From positions 1 to 58,408 of the IMG/VR virus record IMGVR_UViG_3300044497_000111: DNA of 58,408 nt. One strand, 5' to 3'. The position numbers and the translations under genes were made by a program. Of the stretch, positions 629 through 58,408 are shown in pieces. The notes under the pieces are model-generated. The model saw nothing but the letters and a program-made list of their open reading frames with translations, had not been told where the DNA came from and did not search any database. Source of the stretch: a virus. Each line of letters starts with the position of its first letter. Position 1 is the stretch's first letter.

Positions 629-3600
629 TAGGTGACCCCGAGCACATCTTGGAAGCGCGTGCGACTACCGGCCACGTTGTCTTCAATGGTCTGCGCCACA
701 ATCGGCACCACGCGGCGCTGCACCGTCTGCACCAGGTCGCCGTCGCTGAAGACGCCATCGACGTTGAACACCATATTCACCGTGACCGGCGGCGCCGTGG
801 CGAGCTGCGTGCCGACGTAGGCACGGCGCAAGTCGGATTCGGGAATAACGGCCTCGCGCCCGTGCAGCATGGCGAGCGTGCCCGCGCCGAAGTCCATCAC
901 GCCGCCCGACCCGGTTGCGAAGCCCGGCACTTGCGGCTCGCCCGTCGGCGCGTTCTTGTCGGGCAGCCCCGAGGGCGGGTTCACGTTGACGTCGACCTCG
1001 ACATCTTCGATCTTGTCGAGCTCGCGATTGACGCCTTCGGCGCCGGTCTTCGCGGCGGCCGGCAATTTATCTTTCAGGAATTTGGCAAGGTCTTCGAGCA
1101 CGAGCACGAGGCGGTCCGTGGCTTGCCCGACCTTCGTCATCGTCGTTTCCATCGTCGTGCCGAAGGTGAGCCCGAGCTGGCTCATGTTGGTGATTTTCTT
1201 GCCGTCCTCGTCGAAGACCTCGCCCGCGTCGATGGCGTGCTGGATGATCGAGCGCATCGACTCCGGTACTTCGACGCCCGCCTTCTTCGCGTCCTTCACG
1301 AATTCGTTGATGCTCGGCCCCATGCCGCGCATCTGCGCGTTGATTTCCACGCCCGAGTCGCGCAGCAGGATGAAGTCCTTAATGAGCGTTTGCGCTCGCT
1401 CGTTCATCTTCGCCTGCTGGAAATTTTTCCCGGCGTCCTTGAAGGCGATGCCGTACTTGTCGAGAGCGCCCCCGACGTCCTCGTAATTCTTTTTCTGTTT
1501 GGCGAGCTCGTCGTTGAGCGTCTTGATGGCGCCGAGATAGCCTTCCGTCGTGCTCTCGTCGAAGACCTTGTCGAGCGCCTCCTGCACTCCCGGCGTGATC
1601 GTGGTGACGCCCTCGAGACTCGCCTTGAACGTCTCGACGGCGGGCATGAGTTCGTCTTCGAAGAGGCGTATCTGCTCTTCCCACTTCGCGTTGTACTCGT
1701 CGAGAATGCCATTCAGGTTCGCGAGCGCCTTCTGGTATTCCTCCGGGTTCCGGGCATCGAACACGGCCTGCACCGCCTCGACGTTGCCGGTCATTTCCTG
1801 CACGCGGGGATTGATCGACTCCAACCCGCCTTGGAGCAGGAAGAATTGTTCGCGCAGCCGATTGACTTCCTTGTGCGCGGCTTGTTCCTTCAGCGCCTTG
1901 AACCCGCGATAGACGCCGTACACGCCGAGCGCAACGGCGCCGATGATCGGCACGGCCTGCGCCATCGTCAGCCCGGTCGCGGCCACGCCCGTCCCTGCGC
2001 CGACGTCAATCGCGGTTCCGGCAATCACGGGAATCGCCGGGGTCGCCGCCGCCGCCACCCCGCCCGCCGCCACCGTGCTCGCCGCCGCCGTGCCTGCGAC
2101 GGCCGTCGACACGTACGAACTGGCGGCCCCACCCGCGATATTCGCCGCCGCCCTGCCGGCGAAGGCCTTCGCAATCACCCCGGCGAGGTCTTTCCCGAAA
2201 TCGATCAACACGTCCTGAAACCGCCGAATCAGCGGGTCGAGCACCGCGTCGGCGATCTGTACGCCGAGTCCTTTCATGGCGCCGATGAACCCGCCGCCGC
2301 CCGTGAACGCACTGACGAGCAGTTTCGGAATGCCGTCGAAGACCTGTTTGAGATTCTTGCCGACGGCTTGCATGGCCGTCACCGCTTCGTCGCGTTGCTT
2401 CTGGAAGATGGCGCCGATCTGCGAGGCGACCCCGTTGATCTCGTCAATCGCCGTGGCGGCGTCCTGCGCCCCGACCTCGACGTCATCCAGCGATGAGGCG
2501 ATGAACCGGAATTGGGCTTCGACGTGGTCGAATTGCTCGCCGAGCTCGATGGCTTCCGCCGCATCTTCGATGGCTTGGAACGCCAGCGCCAGTTTGTAGA
2601 ACTCGTCGCGAATGTCTTCGAGCTGTTCCTTTTCCTGTTTCGCCGCGTCGGCGGCGGCCTTCATCGCCGTTTCGTTGCGGTCGAGCTGATCGTTGAAGAG
2701 GTCGATGGCGAGCGTGCTCAATTGGAATTTGGTTTTGAGCTCGTCGACTTCGAAGTGCCCGGACTTGACCGCCGTCACGAAGTCGGCGAATTCCTTCGGC
2801 CGGTCTTTCGCGAATTTGTCGAGCTCCGCCTGCGCGTCGGCGAGCTTTTGGCCGAACGTCTGCGCGACCGGGATGGCGATCCCTAAATTCTTGGCGAGGG
2901 ATGCGATATTGATGTCGACGGTCGTGACGCCGTCGGCCAAGTCCTGCCCGTGGAGCGCCGCCGCTGCCTGCGCGTCTGCGAGGGTGATGATCTTTTTGGC
3001 AACTTCCTCGACCGGCTTCCCGGTCTGCCCGATCTTGTCCGCCGAGTTTTTCGCCGCCTCGGCCGCCGCTGCCAGATCGGCCTTGAGCTTGTCGGTCATC
3101 TCCGCGACGAAGATCGCCGTGCCCGCGATGCCGAGACCAATCAGGCCCGCCTTGCCACCTTGGGCGAGGATGCCCAAGAGGCCAGACCCGATCTCGACGT
3201 TCCGCATCGCGATGAGCGCCCCCCTCAACGTGTTGATGAGGCCGGTGAGCGCACGGGCGCCGACGCCGCCCTTGCCGAACGCCAACGTCAGTGTGCCCAC
3301 GCTCTCGATGAGCTGCCCGGTCACCCAGAGCGCCGGACCCAACGCCGCGCCGAGGCCGCCGAGAATCAGGAAGGCGGCTTGGATTTCCCCCGGCAGTGCC
3401 TTGAACGCCTGCGCGATCCCGTCGATGTAGGGCAGCAATTTGCCCAGCCACTCGATCATGGTTTTGATCGCGGGGATCATGGCATCGCCGAGCGTGATGG
3501 CGACGTCGTTGATCTGGTTCCACAGGAGCTTCAATTGGTTCGCCGTGGTCGCGTACTTTTTCTGCGCTTCCTCGAGATGTTTGTTGCTGGTCTCGTAGCC

Positions 3601-4632: not shown

Positions 4633-4932
4633 TTACGTGCGCCGTTTGACTTTCGGTTTCACGGGCGCCGTCCGCCGTTGCTGATGTTTGCGGAATTGTT
4701 CCATTTGTCGTTTCCGGGCGGCCTTCTGTTCCTGCCATGACGGGCGCGGCGTGTCGACTCGCCGTCGCGACGAACCCAGTAATCGGTCGCGGTAGTACGC
4801 GTAGTCGTGGAGCTTGCCCGCCTTCGCCGACGAATTGAACGCCGCCACGTGCCACGCCGTGAAGAGTCCCAATTCGTACAGCCATTCCCGCTGTTTGCTG
4901 GCACTCCGAAACAGCAACGTCATTTCGTGCAA
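4633..4932 (-). CDS. Tail assembly chaperone, -1 frame segment (gpT-like; probably made as a G-T fusion)
   Basis: This frame is -1 relative to 4968..5375 and stays open upstream of its first ATG back to the A6 run at 5007-5012. The upstream in-frame peptide ...LGISPDQFWGARSLHEM... looks like part of the domain. Confidence 0.6.
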   Translation of the reverse strand: MHEMTLLFRSASKQREWLYELGLFTAWHVAAFNSSAKAGKLHDYAYYRDRLLGSSRRRVDTPRPSWQEQKAARKRQMEQFRKHQQRRTAPVKPKVKRRT

Positions 4933-4967
4933 CGAACGGGCGCCCCAGAATTGGTCGGGCGAAATCC

Positions 4968-5375
4968 CTAAGTCTGCGGCGTCGATAAGGAGTCGGCCGA
5001 GTCCCGTTTTTTCTTCGCCGACCCCTTCCGAGGGTTTGCCCCATTCCCATTGCTGCCGCCGCGTAACGACGACTGCAGACTGGCGGTGAAGCCCTCCACG
5101 GTCGCCTTCATGCCGCAGTCGTCAATCAGATCGCCCGCGTCGAGCTCGCTGATGTCGTCGCCGACGACCGACGCCTGCACCATCTTGCGCAGGTCGATGA
5201 GGCTGAAATCGCCGCCGCCGCCCTTCATCAACCTGGCGAGCAGGCTGTTGAGCGTCGGCTCGTTGAACGCTTCCTGCATACGCGCCAACGCATTCGTGCC
5301 CAGCCGAATCGTGTACGTCTTGCCGCTATCGCCGGTCAGCGCGACTTCGCCGCGCAGGGGATTGTTGGTGCTCAC
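4968..5375 (-). CDS. Tail assembly chaperone (gpG-like, GTA-type)
   Basis: N-terminus NPLRGEVALTGDSGKTYTIRLGTNALARMQE resembles GTA/HK97-type tail assembly chaperones. It lies between the tail tube region and the tape measure gene. Confidence 0.7.
   Translation of the reverse strand: MSTNNPLRGEVALTGDSGKTYTIRLGTNALARMQEAFNEPTLNSLLARLMKGGGGDFSLIDLRKMVQASVVGDDISELDAGDLIDDCGMKATVEGFTASLQSSLRGGSNGNGANPRKGSAKKKRDSADSLSTPQT
5006..5016 (-). other. Candidate -1 programmed ribosomal frameshift site (GAAGAAAAAAC)
   Basis: Zero-frame codons are aag aaa aaa cgg, 12 codons before the gpG-like stop. After a -1 slip the frame reads KKTGLGRLLIDAADLGISPDQFW... with no stop and joins ORF 4633..4932. Confidence 0.6.
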
Positions 5376-5388
5376 AAGTCACACACTC

Positions 5389-5814
5389 CTATTTCCGATT
5401 GAGGCGGGTCGCCGCCGCCTCGATCCGTTTCCCGAGCTCGACGCCGTAGCGATGGATCGTCGCTTCGGCGTACTCGTCGAACGCCGGCCGCATGAACGGC
5501 TGCGCCTGTTGATGCACGGTGCCGAATTCCGAAAACAAGCCATAGAAGTGCTTGCCATCCGGCCCGAGCGCGTACGTGATTTCGACGTCGTTGTCGCCCG
5601 TCTCGGGCTTCATCTTGCGCAGCTTGATGCTGTCGGCCATGTGGCCGTGCTTCCCCGGATTCGACGACCGGGGGGCTTCCTGCTGCGCGGCGGCCTCCAT
5701 CGGCTTCGCCGCATCGCGCAACGCCTGCGCCATGACCTTGCCCGCGATTTCTTCGGGCAATTTCCGCAGCGCCTTTTCGAGCTCCTCGAAGCCCGACATC
5801 TTGATCGTGAACAT
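5389..5814 (-). CDS. HK97 gp10-family head-tail/tail component
   Basis: MFTIKMSGFEELEKALRKL...FYGLFSEFGTVHQQAQPFMRPA matches the HK97-gp10-like pattern (..EfGT...qPFl.pA). Only the last 141 codons of track ORF 5389..6573 look coding. Confidence 0.7.
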   Translation of the reverse strand: MFTIKMSGFEELEKALRKLPEEIAGKVMAQALRDAAKPMEAAAQQEAPRSSNPGKHGHMADSIKLRKMKPETGDNDVEITYALGPDGKHFYGLFSEFGTVHQQAQPFMRPAFDEYAEATIHRYGVELGKRIEAAATRLNRK

Positions 5815-5825
5815 CGCCGCCCGTC

Positions 5826-6581
5826 CTAGACGGCGATGCCCGTGTACCACGCCGGAGTCGGTGTCGTCTTCCAGTGCGCGGTCGTCGTGTCGAGCAGCAC
5901 GACGTGCTGACCGGTCGTCCACGTCGTCGCCGGATTCGCCACGATGCCCGTCATGGCGGCGAAATTCGCCGGGGTCACCGCGCCCGATGGCGTAAACGAG
6001 CCGGGGGTGCCCGCGTCCGCCCCCGTGGCAAGGACCGCGCCCGTGCCTTCGAATTCGATGTCGCCCGTGATCTGATACGTCACGTTCAATTGCAGCTTGC
6101 CGCCGACGTCCTGGCCGGTCTTCTCGGCGCTCGCGATGTAGCCGAAGTAATCCCAGCCGTTGCCGTCGGGGAACACTTCGCGCAGGGAGAATTCCTCCTG
6201 CGAATCCAAGTACGCCAGCAATTGCACGTGCGAGGCGTTCTCGGGAATGTACTGAATCGTGAACGACAGAATGCCCGAGTCGATGAAGCTCGGCTTGTAC
6301 TCGCGCCGCCGGTTCGGGCTGCGGAGATGCGTGAAGTCGATCCGCTCGGTCGTGCCGCCGCCGCCGCTGATGTTGGTGACCTCGGCGATTTCGGAGTACC
6401 CCGCCGGGGCCAGTCCCGGCTCGTCCGCCATCAGCAGATACGATCCCTGTGCGGGCAAGCCGTCGCTCCCGCCTGCGATGTACGGCACGGCGTAGACGAA
6501 CGGCCGCGAGAGGCCGACGCCATACCACCACCGGCGCACACGCACGAAAAACATTCCCCTGCCAACATCCCATCGCTTCAT
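5826..6581 (-). CDS. Major tail (tube) protein candidate
   Basis: 251-aa ORF with a strong SD (AAGGAGAG) 6 nt before ATG 6581. It sits between the tail-completion and chaperone genes and has a Thr/Gly-rich C-terminal extension. Confidence 0.6.
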   Translation of the reverse strand: MKRWDVGRGMFFVRVRRWWYGVGLSRPFVYAVPYIAGGSDGLPAQGSYLLMADEPGLAPAGYSEIAEVTNISGGGGTTERIDFTHLRSPNRRREYKPSFIDSGILSFTIQYIPENASHVQLLAYLDSQEEFSLREVFPDGNGWDYFGYIASAEKTGQDVGGKLQLNVTYQITGDIEFEGTGAVLATGADAGTPGSFTPSGAVTPANFAAMTGIVANPATTWTTGQHVVLLDTTTAHWKTTPTPAWYTGIAV

Positions 6582-6615
6582 GGTCGCTCTCCTTTTGTTT
6601 GCCGTCGTCGTGTTG

Positions 6616-7071
6616 TTACGCCGGTCCCTGTCCCGTCTGGTGCCAAATCAAGTAATCCGCCGAGTACCGATAGAAGCCGCTCGTGGCGCCTTCGCCTTCG
6701 TCGAATTCGTCGCGGTCGAGCGCCAATTCGAACGCGAAGCGGCGCCATGCGGGCGGCAGCACGCTCGTGTCGAGCAAATCGACCGTGGCGCCCTCGAGAC
6801 GCTCGCGCAGCAGTTCGCCGATCTGCTGGCTGACTTCGAAGGCACTCCCCTGCCCTTCCTTCGTCCAGACGTCGAACTGGTACCGGGGCCGGGAGAGACT
6901 GGCTCGGCCGCCGCGCAGGGGCGGCCCCGACTCGCCCGATACCCGCGTCAACGTCAGCGCCGGGAAGATCGCCGTCTGCGGCACTTTCAGCGGGTAGACG
7001 CGGGTGCCCAGCACCAACGCGAGCGCCGGGTCCGCGAGAATGAAATCGCGCACCATGCCGAAGACGTTCAC
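6616..7071 (-). CDS. Tail completion protein (DUF3168-like)
   Basis: 151 aa. Its position and the pattern ...RVYPLKVPQ...FPALTL... resemble DUF3168 tail-completion proteins. 4-nt overlap with the upstream gene. Confidence 0.55.
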   Translation of the reverse strand: MNVFGMVRDFILADPALALVLGTRVYPLKVPQTAIFPALTLTRVSGESGPPLRGGRASLSRPRYQFDVWTKEGQGSAFEVSQQIGELLRERLEGATVDLLDTSVLPPAWRRFAFELALDRDEFDEGEGATSGFYRYSADYLIWHQTGQGPA

Positions 7072-7418
7072 GGGCGGTCTCCACGCCCGACGACCGGAAT
7101 CAGCCAGCCGTCATGGCGCCCGACTTCGACCGGCGGCTTGATGTCGTAGAGCATTCCTTCGAACAGCACGCGTTGCGTCTCGGGCACCGGCCGGTCGATG
7201 TACTCGACGCGGAAGACGCCGTCGATCAACGTGCCCAGCCGTTGCTGCGCGAAGTAGGCTTCCCGCGTCGACCCCGGCAGCCACTGCGCGTAGAGCGTCA
7301 ATTGGTTCGCCGTCCAGTCGATCAGCTCTTCGCCCGTGTCCGGGTCTTGCGTGATCGTCGCGGTCTGCAAGGTGATCTCGCGGTCGCGCAGGCCGGGATC
7401 GGAACTCACGAGCGTCAT
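7068..7418 (-). CDS. Head-tail adaptor / head closure protein (Phage_H_T_join-like)
   Basis: 116 aa. REITLQ...DPDTGEELIDW...LYAQW...REAYFAQQ...FRVEY fits the SPP1 gp16/HK97 gp9-type pattern. Overlaps both neighbours by 4 nt. Confidence 0.7.
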   Translation of the reverse strand: MTLVSSDPGLRDREITLQTATITQDPDTGEELIDWTANQLTLYAQWLPGSTREAYFAQQRLGTLIDGVFRVEYIDRPVPETQRVLFEGMLYDIKPPVEVGRHDGWLIPVVGRGDRP

Positions 7419-10946: not shown

Positions 10947-12989
10947 TTACGCCGCCGGTCGCTCAGTCACCGGCCGACGCGGACGCTCGGGCGTCGTGTT
11001 CGGACCCGCCGACAACGGCGCCGAGGTGTAGCCGACCGCATCGAGCCACGCCACGGCTTGTGGCCGCATCCGTGCCCAATTGATGAACCGCTCGGCCCGC
11101 AGCGCGATGCTGTTGGTCTGGAACATCGAGACGACGGTCGTCGGTGTCGCCGCCGGGGAACTCGCCATCGTCGGCGCGTCGTCCATTTGCAACGACGCTT
11201 CGCGGCTGACGTCGACGGTCACTTGCCCGTCATCGGACAGGAAGATTTCCTTCGCGTTCGCGAGAATGACAATCGCCGAATCAGCCGTGCCCACCGTCGC
11301 CGCATACTGCGACGTGACGACCGGAATGCCGAGCAACGTGCCGCCCATCATGGTGACGTCGGGGAATTCACGGACGCCGGTCGTGCCGTTCTTGATGAGC
11401 GAGAGGCGCATCGCCACGGTCGACGGCATAATCCAGACGGCGGTCTCGATGCTCTGATTCGACGCGAGGAACGCATCGACCAAGGCGCCGAGGTCCGCCA
11501 GCGGGTCGGTCGTCGCCGGAATGCCCGCGACTCCGTTGGTGATCGACGCGGGCGAGACCCCAGCCACGGCGGCTTTCGCCGGGTCGATGAAGTCGATGTC
11601 GATGCGCTCGATGAGCGCGGCGGCCAATTGGTCGCGCACCATCTGTTCGGCGCTCGGACTCGAGAACCGGGCGAGCTCTTCGGTGAGCACCGAAATCGCC
11701 GCGACCTTCGCCCAGGTCAACGTCGTCGGCGCCACGCCGAACCGCGTGAGCGGTTTCGCCGCGCCCTGTCCGACCCAGTACCCGGCCCCGCCGCTCGTCT
11801 GGCCGATGACGCGCACGTTGAAGGGCACCATCGTCAGGCCCGGAATGTTGCCGATGATCGTCTTCGGCCGCAGCCACTCGATGAATTCCGTGGCGAGATT
11901 CGCCGGGTCCACGAGCGCCCCCATGTAAGTCGCGTCGGACGTGTTCGACGCGGCGACGGCGGCTTTCAGGTACTGCTGCACGCGAGCGTCGTGCGGGTAG
12001 CGTTCGGTCGCAATCTCGGCCGCGTTCCGGTACTGCTTGAACGCCTGCATCTTGCACATCACCGCACGGGCGAAGCCGATACCGGGCTTCGTGTTGTCGC
12101 GGACGGTGATGATGCCGGTCCCACTGCGTGCGGCGGCGGCGGCGTCAGGCGTGGCGCCCGCGACCGGCAGCGCCTTGGTCACGTTGATCTTTTCGAGTTC
12201 TTTCAGGTCGACCAATTCGGCGTCGATCCTTGTGATCTCGGCGCGGAGTTCGTCGAATTCGGTTTTCTCGGCGTCGTCCTTCGTGCGGCCGTCGTCGAGC
12301 GCCTTCGTTTGAATTTCATCCAGCCGTGCCGCCTTCGCCGCTCGCGTCGACTCGAGATCCTTGATCTGTTCGCCGTAGGTTTTCTTCATGGGTCGTCCCT
12401 GTCGCGGCAGGAGCTTCACGCCGCGCACAGTGTCCGAAACGCCGGACGGGATGGAAGGGGCGACCGGTGCCTCAGTGCCAAGCGCGGCAAGGTCCGTGTC
12501 GAAGTCGCGGAGAGCTTTCATCGTGAGAATCGCGGCGGCGGTATTCGCGGGAATCGTGACGGCGCTCAATTCAATCCACAGCCACTTCACGAATTTGAAG
12601 CCGCTGATCATGCCGTCTTTGTCTTCGATGAGGTCGACCTTCAGCCCCCGGAAGCCAATCGACAGGCCGCGCACGAGCCCGGCCTTGATCGTGTGCCATG
12701 CCTCGTCGAGTCGATCCTTCAGGCGGCCAGGTTCCGCAAACCGGCTGATGCGGGCCTGAATTTCGATTCCGGCTTTCGTGTGCTTGGCGGCGAAGACTTC
12801 GCCTATCGGCTGCTTGCTGTCGTGTTGCCACAACAGCGGAATCGGTAATTGGAATTCGGCGCCGGTCGGATCGACGATGTCACCCGCCCGGTCGGTCTCG
12901 GCGTTCGTGGCGATGCCGGTGATGATGCGCTGCTCGTCGTCGAACGACTTGAACGTCAGCAGGCTGTAGATCCGGCGGTCGTCGTGCAT
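10947..12989 (-). CDS. Prohead protease (HK97 S78/U35-type) fused to major capsid protein (HK97 fold)
   Basis: The N-terminal ~165 aa (ITGIATNAETDRAGDIVDP...LLWQHDSKQPIG...LSIGF...ELSAVTIPAN) match the prohead protease. A coiled-coil linker follows (KTYGEQIKDLE...DLKELEK). The C-terminal ~380 aa have the HK97 MCP pattern (...TLTWAKVAAISVLTEELARFS...). Confidence 0.85.
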   Translation of the reverse strand: MHDDRRIYSLLTFKSFDDEQRIITGIATNAETDRAGDIVDPTGAEFQLPIPLLWQHDSKQPIGEVFAAKHTKAGIEIQARISRFAEPGRLKDRLDEAWHTIKAGLVRGLSIGFRGLKVDLIEDKDGMISGFKFVKWLWIELSAVTIPANTAAAILTMKALRDFDTDLAALGTEAPVAPSIPSGVSDTVRGVKLLPRQGRPMKKTYGEQIKDLESTRAAKAARLDEIQTKALDDGRTKDDAEKTEFDELRAEITRIDAELVDLKELEKINVTKALPVAGATPDAAAAARSGTGIITVRDNTKPGIGFARAVMCKMQAFKQYRNAAEIATERYPHDARVQQYLKAAVAASNTSDATYMGALVDPANLATEFIEWLRPKTIIGNIPGLTMVPFNVRVIGQTSGGAGYWVGQGAAKPLTRFGVAPTTLTWAKVAAISVLTEELARFSSPSAEQMVRDQLAAALIERIDIDFIDPAKAAVAGVSPASITNGVAGIPATTDPLADLGALVDAFLASNQSIETAVWIMPSTVAMRLSLIKNGTTGVREFPDVTMMGGTLLGIPVVTSQYAATVGTADSAIVILANAKEIFLSDDGQVTVDVSREASLQMDDAPTMASSPAATPTTVVSMFQTNSIALRAERFINWARMRPQAVAWLDAVGYTSAPLSAGPNTTPERPRRPVTERPAA

Positions 12990-13039
12990 GTCGGCGACGA
13001 GTGTGCCGACCTTCCGGCGAGTCGCCTATTTTTCAGTAC

Positions 13040-13200
13040 AAAATTCGCCGCGAAGCAACGAAGCAAAATGGAAGCAAACGCGAAGCAAATTGCTTCTGTT
13101 TTGCTTTGAAGCAAACGAAGCAAAACGGAAGCAAACATGAAGCAACCTGTACGAAGCAAAACGGAAGCCCCGTACCCAGTACGTACTTTGCTTCGACGTA
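13040..13200. repeat. Iteron-like array of GAAGCAA heptamers (9 direct, 3 inverted) with two central palindromes
   Basis: Direct copies start at 13052, 13060, 13071, 13082, 13108, 13117, 13128, 13139 and 13153. Inverted copies lie at 13090-96, 13101-07 and 13188-94. A 23-nt unit ACGAAGCAAAAYGGAAGC... occurs at 13058-80, 13115-37 and 13151-73. The local sequence is visibly AT-richer than its flanks. Confidence 0.85.
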
Positions 13201-13240
13201 CGTACGTCTTCTTAGTCCCCGATCTTCGTACTAGTACCGT

Positions 13241-13266
13241 TATTAAAAGCAGTGCCTTCGGCACTT
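13241..13266 (-). terminator. Possible intrinsic terminator after the terminase/RHH unit
   Basis: Minus strand reads AGTGCC-gaa-GGCACT followed by GCTTTTAATAA, about 40 nt after the RHH stop. The stem is short (5-6 bp). Confidence 0.35.
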
Positions 13267-13305
13267 TAGCGCCGAAAAACGGAAGAATGCAGGACGGAGA
13301 GGCCG

Positions 13306-13515
13306 TTACTTCAGCCGACCGGTGAGCACGTCGCGCAGGGTTCCGGCAAGGGTCGTTCGCCGAGTCTTCGCCATCTGAATCAGGCGGTCGTAGTCGGTGA
13401 TCGGCAGCCGCGTGTTGACCGCCACGGTCTCTTCCACGCTGACGCGAGGACGTCCCCGACGGCGTCGGTCGGGCACGAAGAGCAGCGGCGTCGTCTCGTT
13501 GTCCTGGTCGCTCAT
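13306..13515 (-). CDS. Ribbon-helix-helix (CopG/Arc-like) DNA-binding protein
   Basis: 69 aa. ...RGRPRVSVEETVAVNTRLPITDYDRLIQMAKTRRTTLAGTLRDVL fits a strand-helix-helix layout. ATG 13515 overlaps the terL stop (ATGA). Confidence 0.5.
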   Translation of the reverse strand: MSDQDNETTPLLFVPDRRRRGRPRVSVEETVAVNTRLPITDYDRLIQMAKTRRTTLAGTLRDVLTGRLK

Positions 13516-23914: not shown

Positions 23915-24423
23915 AGACCGACGACCTTGGCGTCACGTTGACGCACCATACCGTCCCGACCGGTCACGGCCTGATGGCGGGATTTCTCGTCCGGTTCACC
24001 GGAACGACGACCGACATCGGCTATGTCTGGACGTCGGGGGGATCGTGGCGGTGGCAGACGGTCAAGGCCGAACACTACGGCGAACGGACGACCAAGCGAC
24101 TCGCCACGATGGCCCTTCGCGACTCGTTTGCCGTGATGACCGGTCGACCGTTGACGACCACGACGACACGGACCCCGGTCCTGACCCAACGCGATGCCGA
24201 CATCCTCGACGCGTGGGGCACGTCGCCAGCGCGGTCGGTCGGTCGGTCGTCGACAACATCGACTCCACGACCGGTCGTCGTGCCTGTGACCGCTCAGACG
24301 GTCCCCGAGACCGTCCCGCCGGTCGTTCGTCCGGTCGTTCGACAGATCGTCTGGGACGACACGGCCCCCGCGTTCGACGTCACCGCCGCGCTCGACGCGG
24401 CTTTCCGCAACCGCAACAAGTAA
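23911..24423 (+). CDS. Hypothetical protein
   Basis: 170-aa ORF with an ATGA overlap to the upstream gene. Thr/Pro/Val-rich C-terminal half. Confidence 0.5.
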   Translation: MKTDDLGVTLTHHTVPTGHGLMAGFLVRFTGTTTDIGYVWTSGGSWRWQTVKAEHYGERTTKRLATMALRDSFAVMTGRPLTTTTTRTPVLTQRDADILDAWGTSPARSVGRSSTTSTPRPVVVPVTAQTVPETVPPVVRPVVRQIVWDDTAPAFDVTAALDAAFRNRNK

Positions 24424-28075: not shown

Positions 28076-28270
28076 TGACTCCTAGCGGGACCGGTCTCCC
28101 GACCGGTCGGAAGGTCGATTTCAGGTCTCCGAACGCGCCAGCGACCGGCTGGCACGGTCTCCCACGGTCGTCCCGAGACCGGTCTCGACGGGGTCGGTCG
28201 TCGGTCGGTCGGTCGACCGGTCGACGGTCTCCGGTCGGTCGTCGGTCTCGACGTCGAACAACGACCGTTG
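28076..28270. repeat. Repeat region R2 ((GGTC)n, GACCGGTCTCCCGACCGG, palindrome GAGACCGGTCTC at 28175-28186)
   Basis: Read directly. It lies upstream of the ParB-like gene and overlaps the 3' end of the GNAT-like ORF. Confidence 0.8.
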
Positions 28271-37898: not shown

Positions 37899-38323
37899 GC
37901 AAATTCGCCTTCAGTTAGGGACGGGAGCTCCGGCGCAAGACCGAATTTGTCCTTACACCACCGATGCAAACGCAAGACCTCTTGGACGTCGTTGGCGATA
38001 CCAGCCCACTCGCGCAAGATCAACGTCTCGGCTTGGTCGTAGGTGAACAAGTCCAATTGCTTCCATTCGCCTGCGTCTTCGTCGGCACTGAGCGGCTTCG
38101 CGAACGGCAGTCGGTCTTCCGTTTTTCCCTTCAAGGCCTGTCGACATAATTCCGTCAGCCCTCGGCGTTGACATACAGCAAGCACGTCGTCCGGTATGAC
38201 GCCACGAGCGACCGCTTCATCGGCGAGAACACGCGGCGGCATCGAGCCGCCCAATTGCTGAAATAAATCACGCAGACGCTTCATCACGGCCGTTCGTTGC
38301 AGGGGAATTAGTTCGTCTTGCAT
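37895..38323 (-). CDS. Hypothetical protein
   Basis: AGGAGG SD before ATG 38323. 142 aa. Confidence 0.5.
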   Translation of the reverse strand: MQDELIPLQRTAVMKRLRDLFQQLGGSMPPRVLADEAVARGVIPDDVLAVCQRRGLTELCRQALKGKTEDRLPFAKPLSADEDAGEWKQLDLFTYDQAETLILREWAGIANDVQEVLRLHRWCKDKFGLAPELPSLTEGEFA

Positions 38324-39275
38324 GCGCGTTCGCCTCCTGAAAGTCGGTGTAGACGCGAGTCGTGGTGGCCGAAAGGTTTTCAATTAGTGGCTTGAACGCC
38401 GCCGTACGGCACGCTTTGACAGCGCGACGAAGCGCATTTTCTGCATCGCCCAACAACGTCAGTCCGGGGTCGACGGGGGCTGGCACGGCGGCGGCACGAG
38501 TGAGCGCGGTTCGGCGGGTCACATCATCATCAGACTTGGCCTGCTCGAACAACGAACGACGTTCGTCGGTATTCATGTTGATCACGTTTTTCAGCATGCC
38601 GATGGCCGTCTTCGGCGGGATGGCGTCTTGATCTAAAAGGGCGGCAACCTGCGACCGGTCGCGTGATGGAAGTTTTTCCAATTCAACGCCAGCCTCGAGA
38701 ACACTGTGCTGCACCCAGCCGGTACGCTGCATAAACGGGAACTGCTCGGCGAGCGCGACGTGCCGCTCGACGCGCACTTGCTCGGCAGGCGAGATGCCAG
38801 TTTGCTCGGCTACGTCACGCTTCGATCCAGCTTTCGTGCCTTTCGGACGTCCCTCTCGTCGCCCTCGTTTTGAGTTTTCGTTTCGGGTTGAAACAGAAAC
38901 GGCGTCCTCTTTTGCCTTCGCTTTCAGGTCCGCCTCGGCTTGTCGAATCTGCGCAAGTCGCTGTTTACTTGCGGCGAAGTCGGAGAGCGCCTCTCGGATG
39001 GTGTTCTCTTCGAGCTCGATGGCGCGGAGTTCGTCATCGGTCAATCGCTCGACCTGTCGCGCCGGAATCGTTTTCCAATTGAGCGCCCTGCACGCCTCTA
39101 AGCGGCGATGTCCGGCAACGAGCACATCGCCGCGCAGCAGAATGGGATGAATCAGCCCGTGGTCACTGATGCTTTTTTTGAGACTCTGTAGTCGCCCGAG
39201 CGATTGACGACGACGCTCGCCGACGACGACGCGTTGAATGGGCACCTGCGTAACGGCGGCTGTGGATACGCTCAC
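38268..39275 (-). CDS. ParB-like nuclease-domain protein (paralogue 2) with HTH-like centre
   Basis: ...LKKSISDHGLIHPILLRGDVLVAGHRRLEACRALNWKTIPARQV... (ParBc, GHRR). Later ...RDVAEQTGISPAEQVRVE.... GTG 39275 forms a GTGA overlap with the upstream stop. Confidence 0.7.
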   Translation of the reverse strand: MSVSTAAVTQVPIQRVVVGERRRQSLGRLQSLKKSISDHGLIHPILLRGDVLVAGHRRLEACRALNWKTIPARQVERLTDDELRAIELEENTIREALSDFAASKQRLAQIRQAEADLKAKAKEDAVSVSTRNENSKRGRREGRPKGTKAGSKRDVAEQTGISPAEQVRVERHVALAEQFPFMQRTGWVQHSVLEAGVELEKLPSRDRSQVAALLDQDAIPPKTAIGMLKNVINMNTDERRSLFEQAKSDDDVTRRTALTRAAAVPAPVDPGLTLLGDAENALRRAVKACRTAAFKPLIENLSATTTRVYTDFQEANAHARRTNSPATNGRDEASA

Positions 39276-39775
39276 TGCGCCAACTCCCTCGCCACGGGCT
39301 CGTGGCACAACAATTCGACCGCGTGCAACGCCGTCTGCGGAACCATGAAGCACGGCGGCCGACCATTGGGTGCCCGCCGCCACTCTTCCTCTTTCGCCTC
39401 GTAGCCGAACACCCAGCCGCGAACCACGAATGTCGGCACTGCGCCGGTGACCAACACGAATCGGTGATCGTTGGCGTCGGTCGGTCGCACAATCAGATGC
39501 GCGTCCGCGCCCTTCGCGTAGCGGACTTGGATGCCGCCCTTCACGTCGTCGCCGTCGAACGTCTCGAGACTGCCGCACCAGAATCGGTTCGTCGCCTTGG
39601 CAACGGCCATCTCCGCTGCCGCGCCCTCGATGTCGGTCGCCCACACGTCAATGAGCGACGTCGCGAGTCCATGCGCATCGGCCCGCGCTGCTCGACGGCT
39701 GCGCGTGTATCGGCGAACGCCCAAGAGCGCCGCCTGTTCGACTTCGTCCCACGTCAAGCGCACAGTGACGACCAT
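39272..39775 (-). CDS. Hypothetical conserved protein
   Basis: 167-aa ORF. TAAATG junction upstream. Confidence 0.5.
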   Translation of the reverse strand: MVVTVRLTWDEVEQAALLGVRRYTRSRRAARADAHGLATSLIDVWATDIEGAAAEMAVAKATNRFWCGSLETFDGDDVKGGIQVRYAKGADAHLIVRPTDANDHRFVLVTGAVPTFVVRGWVFGYEAKEEEWRRAPNGRPPCFMVPQTALHAVELLCHEPVARELAQ

Positions 39776-42971: not shown

Positions 42972-44300
42972 ATGCCATCGAAAATCAAACGCACGAAAGT
43001 CGAACCGAATATCTGGCGCCGCCCGAGCGGTGTCTACGAAGCCCGGCTGACGGTCACCGGCCGCCCGCCGGTGTTGGAGACGTTTCCACCGGACACGTCG
43101 ATCAAGGAGATTCGCCAGTGGATCGCCGACAAACGCAGCGAACTCGAAAAGGATTGCCGTCTCTTCGGTCGACTCACGCGACAGGCGCAGGCACAGGCGA
43201 CCGGCACGCTCGAAGGCGATGCCTCGCGGTATCTCAATCAAATTGCTGGCCGTGAAGGGTCGAAGGCGGACGGGTCGCATCTGCGGGCATGGTTCGACGT
43301 CGAGGTCGTCGTCGACCACGTCCGCGTCCGACTCGGGGGACTGGCGCGTGCCGACTGGACCGCCGAACACGTGAACCTGGCGATTGCCGCATGGCAGAAA
43401 AAACCGTCCCCACATGCCATTCGGAAAGTCGTCGTGCGGGCGTCTCAACGGGACGCCCACACCATCGGCACGCATCGCATCGCGGCGACGACCGTGAAGG
43501 CGCACGACCGGACCGGTCATGCCTGCGCCACGGTACGCGGCTACGAACGCCAAGGGTCGGTCATCACCGAACACGCACGGGCGGCGCACACGATTCGTCG
43601 CTACGAACGAACAGCCCCGGCGACGAGCGGCCACATCGTCGCCACGAAAACGATTCGCCATCGGTGTCGGGTGCTCGCGCATCTGTTCCACACGCTCGAC
43701 GGCCCGAAGGCGCCAACGCCGGTCGACGACGCCCGTGTGCCGAAGCATTCGCAGACGCCGCCGGTCACGGTGTCGGCCGAGGTCATCGCGAAGACGCTGG
43801 AAAAGCTGGTCGCGCTCGACGAGAAAATGTTTGCGCGGTTTTACCTGCACGCCGTCACCGCGCAGCGACCCTGTCAGATCGAACGGGCACAACCCGGCGA
43901 TGTGCTGCTCGGCGACGAGCGGTCGTGGCTCGTACGCAACGCGAAGGGCGAACCCGCGCACACCTTTGCCTTGAACGATCATCACGTCCGCGCATGGGAG
44001 TACTTCATCAAGGTGGACGCGTGGGGTACCTTCGACCGGTCCGAATACGGCAAGGTTATTCACAAAGCGGGATGGCCGAAAGGCGTCCGCCCCTACAGTG
44101 CGCGACATTCGCTGGCGGTCGACGCGATTCGGCGTGGCGTCAGTCTCGGCGATGTACAGGCGATGCTCGGCCACACGCAGATCCAGACGACGCGGACGTT
44201 CTATGCGCCCTTCCAAGTCGACCGGCAGCGCGTGGTCAGCGAACAGATGGCGCCGTATCTGGCCGACGTGTTGAAGCCACGACTCGTGGGGAAGAAATGA
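42972..44300 (+). CDS. int: Tyrosine integrase with N-terminal arm-binding-type domain
   Basis: N-terminus ...NIWRRPSGVYEARLTVTGRP.... Catalytic region ...RPCQIERA..., ...YSARHSLAV..., ...MLGHTQIQTTRTFY (R..H.R..Y). Confidence 0.85.
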   Translation: MPSKIKRTKVEPNIWRRPSGVYEARLTVTGRPPVLETFPPDTSIKEIRQWIADKRSELEKDCRLFGRLTRQAQAQATGTLEGDASRYLNQIAGREGSKADGSHLRAWFDVEVVVDHVRVRLGGLARADWTAEHVNLAIAAWQKKPSPHAIRKVVVRASQRDAHTIGTHRIAATTVKAHDRTGHACATVRGYERQGSVITEHARAAHTIRRYERTAPATSGHIVATKTIRHRCRVLAHLFHTLDGPKAPTPVDDARVPKHSQTPPVTVSAEVIAKTLEKLVALDEKMFARFYLHAVTAQRPCQIERAQPGDVLLGDERSWLVRNAKGEPAHTFALNDHHVRAWEYFIKVDAWGTFDRSEYGKVIHKAGWPKGVRPYSARHSLAVDAIRRGVSLGDVQAMLGHTQIQTTRTFYAPFQVDRQRVVSEQMAPYLADVLKPRLVGKK

Positions 44301-49699: not shown

Positions 49700-49875
49700 C
49701 CGAGACCACGAACGAACCGACGACCGACCGACGACACGACCGACCGATAGACCAGACCTACGACCGCCGACCGGTCTCCCGTGACCGGTCGACGCGTCGA
49801 GACCGACCGACCGCCTATAGAGATGACCGGGGACCGACCGTCTCCCCACGGTCTCGACGACCGGTCAGCCGACCT
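49700..49875. repeat. Intergenic repeat region R3 ((CGAC/CCGA)n, GACCGGTCTCCCGTGACCGG, CCTATAGAGATGACCGG, GTCTCCCCACGGTCTCGACGACCGGTC)
   Basis: Read directly. No credible ORF. It precedes the promoter at 49911. Confidence 0.8.
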
Positions 49876-51147: not shown

Positions 51148-51417
51148 ATGACGACTATGCGCGACATCGTGCTCGCGGCGCGATTTATCGCCGACGTGCG
51201 AACGATTCTGAAAGACGAACAGGGCGAGTGGCGGGAATTGAACAGTTGCGCCGATGCGATTCAGGACATTTCGTTGGCGTTGACGCAGTACGACATCGAG
51301 ACGGCGGTCGTTGCCGTTCGTGCCGTTCGTTCGGAATGCACGGACAGTCCCGCGTGCGCTCGCACCGGCTGCGCCGACTGTGAACGGTCGTACGGGCCGC
51401 AAAGGGGGCGACGATGA
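51148..51417 (+). CDS. Hypothetical protein
   Basis: AAGGGAGAC SD before ATG 51148. 89 aa. Confidence 0.45.
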   Translation: MTTMRDIVLAARFIADVRTILKDEQGEWRELNSCADAIQDISLALTQYDIETAVVAVRAVRSECTDSPACARTGCADCERSYGPQRGRR

Positions 51418-51773
51418 CGCCGAAGAAACCGACCGCGAAGGTCGACGTGCCGAAAGGTCAGTCGACCGCATGGCAGGCGACGGCGCACGCCCGAGCCAAA
51501 CAGATCACCGCCGAGCTGAACGTCGAACATCCGGGCGCGTACCTTCGCGCCAAGATTCTGACCCCGCGTGGACTGACCGTGAAGGCCGCCGCCGTCGAGC
51601 TCGGCGTGTCGCGGCAGTCGTGGTCGAGCGTCATCACCGGCGTGACGAACCTGTCACCCGAAATGGCGTGGCGGATTGAGAAGACATGGGGCGTCTCGAT
51701 GGAGTCGCTCCTGAAACGGCAAATGGCGTACGACATTGCGCGAGTTCGCGCAGAACAGGCAGAGACGAAATGA
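51414..51773 (+). CDS. HigA/VapI-type HTH (antitoxin-like) protein
   Basis: HPGAYLRAKILTPRGLTVKAAAVELGVSRQSWSSVITGVTNLSPEMAWRIEKTWGVSMESLLKRQMAYD matches the HigA antidote pattern. Confidence 0.6.
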   Translation: MTPKKPTAKVDVPKGQSTAWQATAHARAKQITAELNVEHPGAYLRAKILTPRGLTVKAAAVELGVSRQSWSSVITGVTNLSPEMAWRIEKTWGVSMESLLKRQMAYDIARVRAEQAETK

Positions 51774-52273: not shown

Positions 52274-52304
52274 ACGGGGGGGCCGTTCTGGTCCCCCCTA
52301 TTTT
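52274..52304 (+). terminator. Intrinsic terminator candidate ending the plus-strand arm
   Basis: GGGGGGCC-gttct-GGtCCCCCC stem followed by TATTTT, starting 5 nt after the stop at 52269. Confidence 0.55.
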
Positions 52305-52319: not shown

Positions 52320-52640
52320 CCCTTCGCGAGACGACCGCGCCGACCGGTCTGGCTGACCGGCTGGCGGTCGACCCGTCGACCGGTCGACCTGTCGAGACCG
52401 GTCTCCCGACCGACCGTCCCACGGTCTTCCCGCGACCGTCGGACCGACCGGTCACGAAAACGACCTGCCGACCGGTCTAGCTGACCGCCTGCCACGTCTG
52501 GGACCGGTCGGTCGACCGTCGAGACCGGTCGGGTGGGTCGTCGGTCTGGCGACCTGCTGGCCCGGTCGGTCGCGAGACCCGGTCCCGAGACGGTCCCGAC
52601 CGGTCGTCGTCGACGTGTCAGGCGAGACCTGACACGACCG
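52320..52640. repeat. Repeat region R4 (largest member of the GACCGGTC / GTCTCCCGACCG family)
   Basis: Tandem GTCGACC x3 (52365-52390). Palindrome GAGACCGGTCTC (52394-52405). GTCCCACGGTC. A 40-nt block at 52459-52498 shared with 16531-16570. A 9-bp hairpin at 52614-52636. Confidence 0.85.
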
Positions 52641-52643
52641 GTC

Positions 52644-52926
52644 GGGGTGCCAAATGGGGTGCCAAATCGAAAAGACAATCAGACGAAATCAAAGGCAATC
52701 GGAGACAACAAAACGCGGACCGGATTTGGCACCCCGCGAGCGGTCGACGACCGCGCCGACAGGGGGCACGTGGCAGATTGCCTAATGTTTTTGCTGATTT
52801 CGCGCTTGTGGAAGGTGGTTGCGGGGGGGGGATTTGAACCCCCGACCTTTGGGTTATGAGCCCACAGGTAAGAGCTCAATCGCTTAAATCCTTAGCAAAA
52901 ACGCACAGCGCGTTGGGGTGCCAAAT
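52644..52926. repeat. GGGGTGCCAAAT repeats (candidate integrase arm-type sites) flanking the tRNA fragment
   Basis: Direct copies at 52644-55, 52656-67 and 52915-26. Inverted copy at 52724-35. Confidence 0.75.
52816..52866 (-). tRNA. 3' half of an initiator-type tRNA-Met(CAT)-like gene (partial; candidate attP core)
   Basis: Minus strand reads TGTGGGCTCATAACCCAAAGGTCGGGGGTTCAAATCCCCCCCCCGCAACCA. This gives an anticodon arm with three G:C pairs and a CAT anticodon, a T arm, the acceptor 3' strand CCCCGCA-A-CCA (as in E. coli tRNA-fMet), and an encoded CCA. No matching 5' acceptor strand or D arm lies upstream. Confidence 0.7.
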
Positions 52927-53281
52927 GTTTTTCCTTGTCACCCTGTCCCGAGCCCGTTGTTGGGGTATGGAAGGGATTCGAACCCTTGCGGCGGGACGTC
53001 CGCGTCCGTTGCCCGCCGACCAGCGCGGCACTGGTTGCCTTCAGCCTCTCAGCCACCATCACCCCGACGCGCCAGTGTATCTCCGTCGGGTCAGGTGCCG
53101 CCAGTCCCCACCGACCGGGCAGACACGAGTAGCCGCACACGCCGTCGGGCGGACAGGCGGGGTCTTGCAAGATTTCAATCGGCAAGCCGTCGGCGCACTT
53201 CGGGAAGGCTCGCAAATTCCACGGGCGCGGGACGCAGCCGCTCGCCACCAGCACCATGACGACGACGGCCAGCCTACGCAT
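52892..53281 (-). CDS. Putative lipoprotein (last ORF of the tail operon); 3' half overlaps a tRNA-like sequence
   Basis: MRRLAVVVMVLVASGC... has a signal peptide plus lipobox-type Cys16, followed by a Cys-rich ~50 aa. The ATG overlaps the stop of the large tail protein (ATGCGTAG). The C-terminal ~60 aa look non-protein-like. Confidence 0.45.
   Translation of the reverse strand: MRRLAVVVMVLVASGCVPRPWNLRAFPKCADGLPIEILQDPACPPDGVCGYSCLPGRWGLAAPDPTEIHWRVGVMVAERLKATSAALVGGQRTRTSRRKGSNPFHTPTTGSGQGDKEKHLAPQRAVRFC
52961..53065 (-). pseudogene. tRNA-like sequence with type-II (long variable arm) architecture, probably degenerate
   Basis: Minus strand: GGGGT(G)ATGG-TG-GCTGAGAGGCTGAAGGC (D arm), ACCAG-TGCCGCG-CTGGT (non-canonical loop, no U33), a ~31-nt extra arm, AAGGGTTCGAATCCCTT (T arm), then CCATACCCC-A. 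The acceptor pairs only with one bulged G. No CCA is encoded. Confidence 0.45.
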
Positions 53282-58012: not shown

Positions 58013-58408
58013 CTACACGCCGGGCCGCAGGCCACGCCCGACTTCCTGGAATTGCAGCCGTTGCGCCGTGATTTCCGGGCGATCCCAGCGCACCGATTCA
58101 TCCGTCATGGCGTACCGCACGAGATAGCACCGGTCGGCGCGAATTGGCCCCGACGGCACGATGACCCACGGACGGGCACTGCCCTCAACGTCGTACCAGT
58201 GCGTTTCGAGCGCGGCCCGCATTTCGTCGGTGAGCAGAATGTCGGCCTCGTGTCCCCAGAGCGTGGTGCCGCGTGGATAGATCGTCGACACGCCGAAGGC
58301 CGTTCGATTCTCGATTTGCGGCTTGTCGGCCCGCACGCTCAAGCCCCAACGTAAATCGGGATCGAAGTGGGAGTACGTCGGATGAAACCGGACCTGGCCG
58401 ACTTGAAT
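58013..58408 (-). CDS. Distal-tail-type minor tail protein, 3' part (same gene as 1-628; 58282-58408 duplicates 1-127)
   Basis: The frame of track ORF 58013..58342 stays open to the window end and continues in phase at nt 628-1. Confidence 0.6.
   Translation of the reverse strand: MQVGQVRFHPTYSHFDPDLRWGLSVRADKPQIENRTAFGVSTIYPRGTTLWGHEADILLTDEMRAALETHWYDVEGSARPWVIVPSGPIRADRCYLVRYAMTDESVRWDRPEITAQRLQFQEVGRGLRPGV
58282..58408. repeat. Terminal direct repeat, copy B (identical to 1-127)
   Basis: Direct reading of both ends. Confidence 0.95.

Follow-up and report, generated by a model that had tools for sequence, protein, structure and literature searches.

Elements with tyrosine integrases that carry the 3' part of their target tRNA gene have long been established. 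The division of their attachment sites into arm and core regions is known from phages lambda and L5. The attP core of lambda is an inverted repeat around a 7-bp overlap, with short arm repeats on both sides that are distinct from the core, and lambda integrates between gal and bio. Mycobacteriophage L5, which uses a tRNA-Gly gene, and HP1, which uses a tRNA-Leu gene, are examples of the anticodon-loop ('A') class. This sublocation class of tRNA gene attachment sites was reportedly described by Williams in 2002. Islander tabulates two site classes, of which the anticodon-centred one is the larger; the database counts 2083 islands with anticodon-centred sites and 3760 with 3' tDNA fragments (PMC4383910). 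In the sublocation concept the symmetric anticodon stem-loop is the likely crossover site (bioRxiv 10.1101/2020.11.02.365908). Prophages were described in the tRNA-fMet(CAU) genes of Sinorhizobium meliloti (PMC11476347), and thus the initiator tRNA is already documented as an attB. The mechanism at an anticodon-loop tRNA site of a lambda-type tyrosine integrase is ordinary and already well known.

The whole stretch of DNA analyzed here (58,408 bases, in the following the window) begins and ends with an exact direct repeat of 127 bp (1-127 = 58282-58408). This overlap closes the assembly to a circle of 58,281 bp. The window is the closed circular genome of a temperate phage. Its gene content is that of a tailed temperate phage with the large structural genes on the minus strand, and includes a PD-(D/E)XK nuclease, an AAA_24 protein, a ParB_N protein (38268-39644) and two HTH regulators around 41.5-42.2 kb. 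A megablast search with 18 kb of the window gave no match to GenBank phages. With high confidence we identify the 283-bp region 52644-52926, bounded by the outermost arm repeats and with a core that reads 5' to 3' on the minus strand, as the attP of this phage and the host tRNA-fMet gene as its target. The region is located between the end of the plus-strand block of small genes, which is closed by a terminator at 52276-52298, and the end of the minus-strand tail block, in which a tail-fibre-like ORF of 1247 amino acids ends at 53274. A distant BLAST search with the attP region matched tRNA-Met genes exclusively. A candidate attP had already been proposed here by a sequence-only reading of this DNA; this proposal is now supported by an existing attB, an integrated relative, a layout that recurs in related phages and the absence of a complete tRNA at the locus.

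The site resembles that of lambda in the size of attP (approximately 240-280 bp), in a core with an inverted repeat around a proposed 7-bp overlap, in short repeats in both arms that differ from the core sequence and in an apparently three-domain Int. In contrast, the target of lambda is not a tRNA gene, the consensus, number and orientation of the arm sites differ, the N-terminal domain of the Int described here has no sequence-level match and its gene lies 8.3 kb from attP. As in the anticodon-loop class, the 3' portion of the tDNA, starting in the anticodon stem, is present on the element and would restore the gene; in this class a displaced fragment and a regenerated gene mark the ends of the element. 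Differences from the described members are the initiator tRNA as target and a beta-rich insertion at residues 150-216 of Int. The S. meliloti prophages share the kind of target gene, but the hosts are Alphaproteobacteria as opposed to the proposed Acidobacteriota, and both the tRNA sequence and the phages differ.

On the minus strand, positions 52866-52816 read GTGGGCTCATAACCCAAAGGTCGGGGGTTCAAATCCCCCCCCCGCAACCA. This sequence comprises an anticodon arm with three G:C pairs closing CTCATAA, a variable loop and a GGGGG/CCCCC T arm. It ends with the acceptor 3' strand CCCCGCA, the discriminator A and CCA and corresponds to an initiator-type tRNA-Met. The 3' half of such a gene, as noticed in the sequence-only reading, was confirmed. 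In tRNA orientation it is preceded by GATTTAAGCGATTGAGCTCTTACCTGT, which shows no relation to a tRNA 5' half and contains neither an acceptor 5' strand nor a D arm, again as had been stated. The search for a complete tRNA at this locus, which had been recommended as a check, was negative: ARAGORN reported no tRNA or tmRNA gene in the whole window, Rfam gave no match at the gathering score, and relaxed ARAGORN thresholds produced only implausible junk calls.

The core identity block comprises 49 nt (52816-52864, minus strand). It is identical at 49 of 49 positions to positions 29-77 of a complete tRNA-fMet gene (CGCGGGGTGGAGCAGTCCGGTAGCTCGTT followed by the core), from the anticodon-stem 5' strand through CCA. 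An exact 48-nt core was found in at least 120 metagenome contigs. Among the approximately 120 metagenome matches listed, the core forms the 3' part of a complete tRNA-fMet (CGCGGGGTGGAGCAGTCCGGTAGCTCGTT plus core) in 111, and nine loci contain the bare fragment. An Int homolog lies beside eight of these nine; these eight loci are other phages using the same site. Thus, the predicted attB exists, as a complete tRNA-fMet gene in at least 111 metagenome contigs and in an NCBI contig of a Vicinamibacterales metagenome-assembled genome (MAG).

Related attPs were obtained from the contigs of the Int homologs P0008, P0044, P0018, P0012, P0017 and P0028, which are 43-57% identical to the Int of the window. 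The six contigs (L001-L006) represent four related phages, and the tRNA-fMet fragment is common to them. Wherever a contig extends beyond int, the fragment is located downstream of int on the opposite strand. The fragments begin at one common point, (T)TGGGCTCATAACCC. In the T stem they have GCGGG/CCCGC, GCAGG/CCTGC or GGGGG/CCCCC, compensatory differences of the kind expected when the copy in every phage derives from the tRNA of its particular host. In all attPs of the family the identity block begins at tRNA positions 25-30, and this truncation point is constant in more than 30 independent phage contigs. We compared twelve attPs (the window, L001-L004, L011, L026, L050, L072, L075, L113 and L171, which belongs to the L004 phage). 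In 12 of 12 the sequence ACCTKT (ACCTGT or ACCTTT), or a variant with one mismatch, lies 5' of GGG; the flanks beyond it have diverged, and the host has GCTCGTT in its place. In IMG/VR, 25 stretches contain the core in its GCGGG variant; 24 of them are of the fragment type, and 20 of these 24 carry the family Int. Several contigs end inside the tRNA-fMet fragment (L007, L133, L134, L136, L139, L140 and L142-L145; three related phages in many independent SRA assemblies). This is expected at a branch of the assembly graph where attP and the host tRNA share 49 bp.

These comparisons also bear on the possibility that the fragment is a decayed pseudogene of a phage-borne tRNA and that the repeats are unrelated to it. 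Genes for tRNA-Met are common in phages, the L001 genome encodes a complete tRNA with a CAT anticodon at another place, and a second degenerate tRNA-like element lies 100 bp from the fragment in the window. However, a constant truncation point in so many independent contigs, a retained part that is perfect and a missing part that is replaced by the conserved ACCTKT all speak against decay. In addition, the fragment is tied to one integrase family, and an integrated relative has the matching 49-bp repeats. We consider the pseudogene extremely improbable; the comparative data appear essentially to refute it.

The integrated relative is the IMG/VR record IMGVR_UViG_3300006845_000403. Two directly oriented copies of the core lie in it at a distance of 10,969 bp. 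Of these, the first belongs to a complete tRNA-Met(CAT) recognized by ARAGORN, and the second is a bare fragment. The direct repeat is exactly 49 bp long and, like the block in the window, spans tRNA positions 29-77. An integrase of the family (E = 3.5e-83 against the family profile) is encoded just inside the second copy. With 30-46% identity to the Int of the window (46% over the catalytic half) it represents a distant branch, and it sits on the other, the anticodon side of the core. The element abuts a second element that carries a large serine recombinase. A related prophage flanked by tRNA-fMet and a repeat of 45-50 nt had been named as a check on the attP, and this record provides one, with 49 bp and in a distant branch.

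Neither this phage nor any close relative (Int more than 50% identical) was found as a lysogen. The 111 listed host loci were searched by blastn, tblastn, an Int HMM and cross-comparison of the flanks, and showed neither an intact family Int beside the tRNA nor an attL. This search yielded one attR-like junction (L035), in which the fragment is followed by host-type downstream sequence, one Int-family pseudogene 0.8 kb from a complete tRNA-fMet (L129) and two loci with other recombinases (L083 and L077). Exact attL-type patterns gave no matches in IMG/VR. A displaced tRNA fragment at an attR would look identical to the fragment described here, and the window might accordingly be a piece of bacterial chromosome that includes a prophage end. 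The probability of this is practically negligible, since the exact 127-bp overlap closes the window, the sequence after CCA is not host-like and phage genes are found on both sides of the fragment, with the tail fibre and a lipoprotein on one flank and early genes on the other. A closed circle with phage DNA on both sides indicates an attP and not the end of a prophage.

Within the core, the anticodon loop CTCATAA (52854-52860, minus strand) is the proposed 7-bp overlap. It is flanked by two candidate core-type half-sites on the same strand. Half-site C, ACCTGTGGG (52861-52869), contains the phage-specific ACCTGT part, which mirrors the AAAGGT of the tRNA, and half-site C', CCCAAAGGT (52845-52853), consists of the anticodon-stem 3' strand and the start of the variable loop. 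Around CTCATAA the dyad ACCTGTGGG / CCCAAAGGT forms an inverted repeat with 8 of 9 matches; the attPs of the relatives have a 9-bp inverted repeat around the 7-nt anticodon loop. Since an inverted repeat around 7 nt is the usual form of a tyrosine-recombinase core, the loop is the probable overlap region and strand exchange most likely takes place in it. The start of the identity block at the 5' strand of the anticodon stem, seen throughout the family, agrees with the anticodon-loop sublocation class (PMC4383910; bioRxiv 10.1101/2020.11.02.365908).

The arms contain the 12-mer GGGGTGCCAAAT. Four exact copies are present in the 58,408 bases, all of them within the 283 bp around the fragment, compared to an expectation of 0.01 copies; none of 100 dinucleotide-preserving shuffles reached four. 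In tRNA orientation, with the first G of GGGCTCAT as position 0, two abutting tandem copies on the P side (52644-52667, starting at 52644 and 52656, plus strand) lie at +196 and +208. One inverted copy on the CCA (P) side (52724-52735, minus strand) lies at +128, and one copy on the anticodon (tail-gene) side (52915-52926, plus strand) is P'-like and located at -63, 63 nt from the core. The sequence-only reading had described exactly this arrangement, twice in tandem, once inverted and once on the other side, and had called it the layout of arm-type sites. Both statements hold: the copies are where they were reported, and the layout recurs around the fragment in the relatives, each with its own repeat sequence. 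The corresponding positions are -58, +96 (inverted), +173 and +185 in L050 (motif CGCGGGGTAG), -66, +107 (inverted), +163, +173 and +185 in L004 (motif GGGGGCCAAG), and -65, +111 (inverted), +172, +184 and +196 in L002 (GGTTCTGG-type motif). L001 and L132 show a matching pattern with the motifs GGGGGCAAAG and GGGGGCGCAA, and the anticodon-side site is found between -58 and -68 in L050, L004, L002 and L011. One repeat approximately 60 bp to the anticodon side, one inverted repeat at about +100-130 and two to three tandem repeats at about +165-210 are thus common to the contigs inspected in detail, and the repeat sequence differs from phage to phage. Lying at conserved positions to either side of the core, and with a sequence specific to each phage, these repeats look like arm-type sites of a heterobivalent integrase. 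It is quite likely, judged from these patterns, that the GGGGTGCCAAAT copies are the arm-type sites of Int.

The same repeats could be bound by a different protein, for example an excisionase or directionality factor, a repressor or a host factor, with the core still serving as attP. Tandem direct repeats in one arm are typical of Xis sites too, as in lambda and L5; the N-terminus of Int has no arm-binding match in Pfam, and an HTH protein is encoded nearby (51414-51773). Nevertheless, the repeats flank the core on either side and occur in either orientation, as arm-type sites do, whereas the pattern of Xis sites is limited to one arm. The motif varies by phage at constant positions, and the N-terminal domain is the most divergent part of Int (31-48% identity over the 66 N-terminal residues versus 49-64% in the catalytic part). 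Furthermore, the model of Int has an N-terminal domain consisting of a sheet plus a helix. Binding of the repeats by another protein therefore seems unlikely, and we continue to regard them as predicted Int sites. For seven proteins, too few for such a comparison, the similarity of the N-terminal domains and that of the arm motifs showed no clear pattern. No excisionase gene was recognized among the small ORFs scanned, and neither IHF sites nor Xis were identified in the phage.

The predicted recombinase for this attP is a tyrosine integrase of 442 amino acids (42972-44300, plus strand; Pfam PF00589). Its catalytic residues R299, K325, R378, H401 and Y411 are invariant in 40 homologs, and PDB profile and fold searches matched XerA, Tn1549 Int and full-length lambda Int. 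An AlphaFold model (pLDDT 88.7) shows strands at residues 8-11, 14-16, 22-26 and 34-38 followed by a helix at 44-65. The full-length lambda Int chains 1z1b, 1z1g and 5j0n align to this model over approximately 440 columns. The integrase with an arm-binding-type N-terminus that had been postulated earlier is thus real as an integrase; the N-terminus matched no Pfam family, those of arm-binding domains included, and the modelled sheet and helix fit an arm-binding domain. Since Pfam does not recognize this domain, its arm-binding role is a prediction from the structural model. Between the core-binding helices and the catalytic domain, the model contains a beta-rich insertion of about ten short repeated strands (residues 150-216). 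This insertion is longer than in most homologs, which have 385-400 amino acids, and does not appear to be a usual feature of characterized integrases. Nearly all of the approximately 95 Int homologs are metagenomic, and soil metagenomes are almost the only known source of the family. When IMG/VR was scanned for the protein pattern of this Int alone, no relatives were recovered.

In the window 8.3 kb separate the stop of int (44300) from the first arm repeat (52644), a distance that the sequence-only reading had left unmentioned. This interval holds about 8 kb of small plus-strand genes 3' of int, up to the terminator at 52276-52298. In most relatives the distance between int and attP is 0.16-1.4 kb, so the window does not show the adjacency of the two that is seen there. 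In L004 and others the same block of small genes, encoding for example a DUF7694 protein, lies upstream of int. Consequently, either int or the block looks moved in the phage of the window, and attP has stayed at the tail-gene boundary. Recombination acts in trans on a circular genome, and the distance is therefore no mechanistic obstacle. An alternative attP just after int was considered and rejected, because this stretch is coding and contains neither repeats nor tRNA-like sequence.

The unusual distance, together with the lysogen search that found none, raises the question of a relic, i.e., a phage that no longer integrates at tRNA-fMet or uses another site. Neutral decay would have eroded both the 49/49 identity to the tRNA of a living host and the four 12-mers, which are all perfect. 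Int is full length and has all catalytic residues, no other tRNA-like att candidate adjoins int, and a distance of this size does not prevent recombination in trans. A relic is accordingly very improbable, and the region is probably the attP in use.

On this basis we propose the following mechanism. Int (42972-44300) would recombine attP with the initiator tRNA-Met gene of the host. Strand exchange would occur in the anticodon loop, with the flanking ACCTGTGGG and CCCAAAGGT acting as core-type sites. Since tRNA positions 29-77 are present in the phage as an exact copy, integration would join the 5' part of the host gene to the 3' part supplied by the phage and so restore a complete tRNA-fMet at the int-proximal end. 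At the opposite, tail-gene end the 3' part of the host gene itself would remain, as a direct repeat of 49 bp. The N-terminal domain of Int would bind the four GGGGTGCCAAAT repeats, as in lambda and L5, and the bound arms would bend, assemble the recombination complex and set its direction. We infer the position of strand exchange, the binding of Int to the 12-mers and the activity of this phage.

The host contigs with the complete tRNA-fMet have a median GC content of 64%, like the phage. Upstream of their tRNA-fMet a metB-like gene and a gene of the DedA family are often found. The metB-like protein is 84% identical to proteins of NCBI MAGs; three of the four named matches are Vicinamibacterales and one is Acidobacteria. 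An identical 77-nt tRNA-fMet is present in L147 (GCA_036558725.1, DATBFC010000321.1), where the neighbouring protein is labelled by NCBI as Vicinamibacterales bacterium. In a BLAST search against plasmids this 77-nt tRNA had at most 91% identity, which was taxonomically uninformative, and a full-text search with the T-arm sequence retrieved no paper. A profile search of GTDB genome contigs with the Int alignment gave two loci. The first, a contig of a Vicinamibacterales MAG (L008), encodes an Int 51% identical to that of the window. At 4768-7263, directly after this Int homolog, whose C-terminus is apparently altered, come an unrelated second integrase and a complete tRNA-Leu(CAA), and because of this neighbourhood the locus is uninformative about target choice. 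In the second, a contig of an Opitutae MAG (L009, 843-1720), a distant Int adjoins the 3' fragment of a tRNA-Arg(CCG). The tRNA neighbours of the two loci suggest that the wider family uses other tRNA genes at the same sublocation. We consider it reasonably probable from these matches that the host is a member of the Vicinamibacterales (Acidobacteriota). The tRNA thus offers the route to host assignment that had been anticipated, and it is a reasonable one; it is not exclusive, since the same tRNA-fMet sequence may occur outside the Vicinamibacterales.

The Vicinamibacterales are an abundant soil group in an understudied phylum, the Acidobacteriota. The site provides a sequence-exact, testable link between them and an uncultured soil phage as well as a metagenomic integrase family. 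A defined Int with a 283-bp attP and a 49-bp attB is also a candidate integration tool for Acidobacteria, which are hard to engineer.

In two loci the gene of a large serine recombinase ends inside the tRNA-fMet 3' half (L077, 86-1720, and L161, 6222-7862, which is IMGVR_UViG_3300006845_000403), and the C-terminus ...AGGGFEPPTFGL is translated from the complement of the tRNA. The L161 copy contains Resolvase, Recombinase and Zn_ribbon_recom domains according to Pfam; the L077 copy was recognized from its translation only. This suggests that a second, unrelated class of elements may target the tRNA-fMet gene and that the site can be occupied in tandem. The initiator tRNA gene of these bacteria would then be a hot spot for several unrelated recombinases.

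The P arm of several relatives contains, 200-260 bp from the core and in inverted orientation, a degenerate copy of approximately positions 1-51 of tRNA-fMet (L004 11421-11464; L132 8571-8608; L011 8483-8528; L075 3304-3349; L113 3252-3300). The copy keeps the anticodon-stem halves TTGGG...CCCAAAGGTCG with a different 'loop' and lies just upstream of int in three phages. It has the appearance of an attB mimic whose overlap does not match and might be a regulatory or decoy core site. A search for this mimic in the window was negative. The complete tRNA of L001 with the CAT anticodon (1800-1874, minus strand) is located among early genes, separate from the attP fragment. It lacks the three G:C pairs of the initiator and is of the elongator-Met or Ile2 type.

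Further elements flank the attP of the window. The window contains 28 copies of the 8-bp palindrome GACCGGTC versus 3.0 expected, with four clusters at 52342-52643, 49769-49866, 28089-28222 and 23958-24276. In the largest cluster nine copies lie in 300 bp of non-coding DNA that follow the terminator (52276-52298) and end exactly at the first arm repeat. The array could consist of binding sites for a phage regulator or for the ParB_N protein. On the other side, approximately 100 bp from the attP core and on the same strand, a tRNA-Ser-like cloverleaf is found (52962-53064, minus strand). It has a T arm AAGGG/TTCGAAT/CCCTT, a long variable arm and a Ser-like D arm, together with a 9-bp acceptor stem with a bulge and an aberrant anticodon loop, UGCCGCG, without U33. 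ARAGORN and Rfam rejected it, its folding z-score is -0.95, BLAST gave only weak matches to the T arms of phage tRNA-Ser, and it was not found in the relatives. It may be a pseudo-tRNA or the relic of an older att site. The attP might be part of a larger control region in which either a putative palindrome-binding protein couples genome-wide regulation to integration and excision or the tRNA-like element is functional. We regard this as doubtful; such an organization of an att site would be one that is not known from lambda-type systems. The cloverleaf overlaps a lipoprotein-like ORF (52892-53281, minus strand) with a signal peptide and the lipobox LVASGC. Only residues 15-63 of the encoded protein are conserved, with 80% identity, in L026, whose protein stops five residues later, and the extension of the window ORF across the tRNA-like element is probably fortuitous. 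The attP of L001 has a lipoprotein gene beside it as well (12888-13325).
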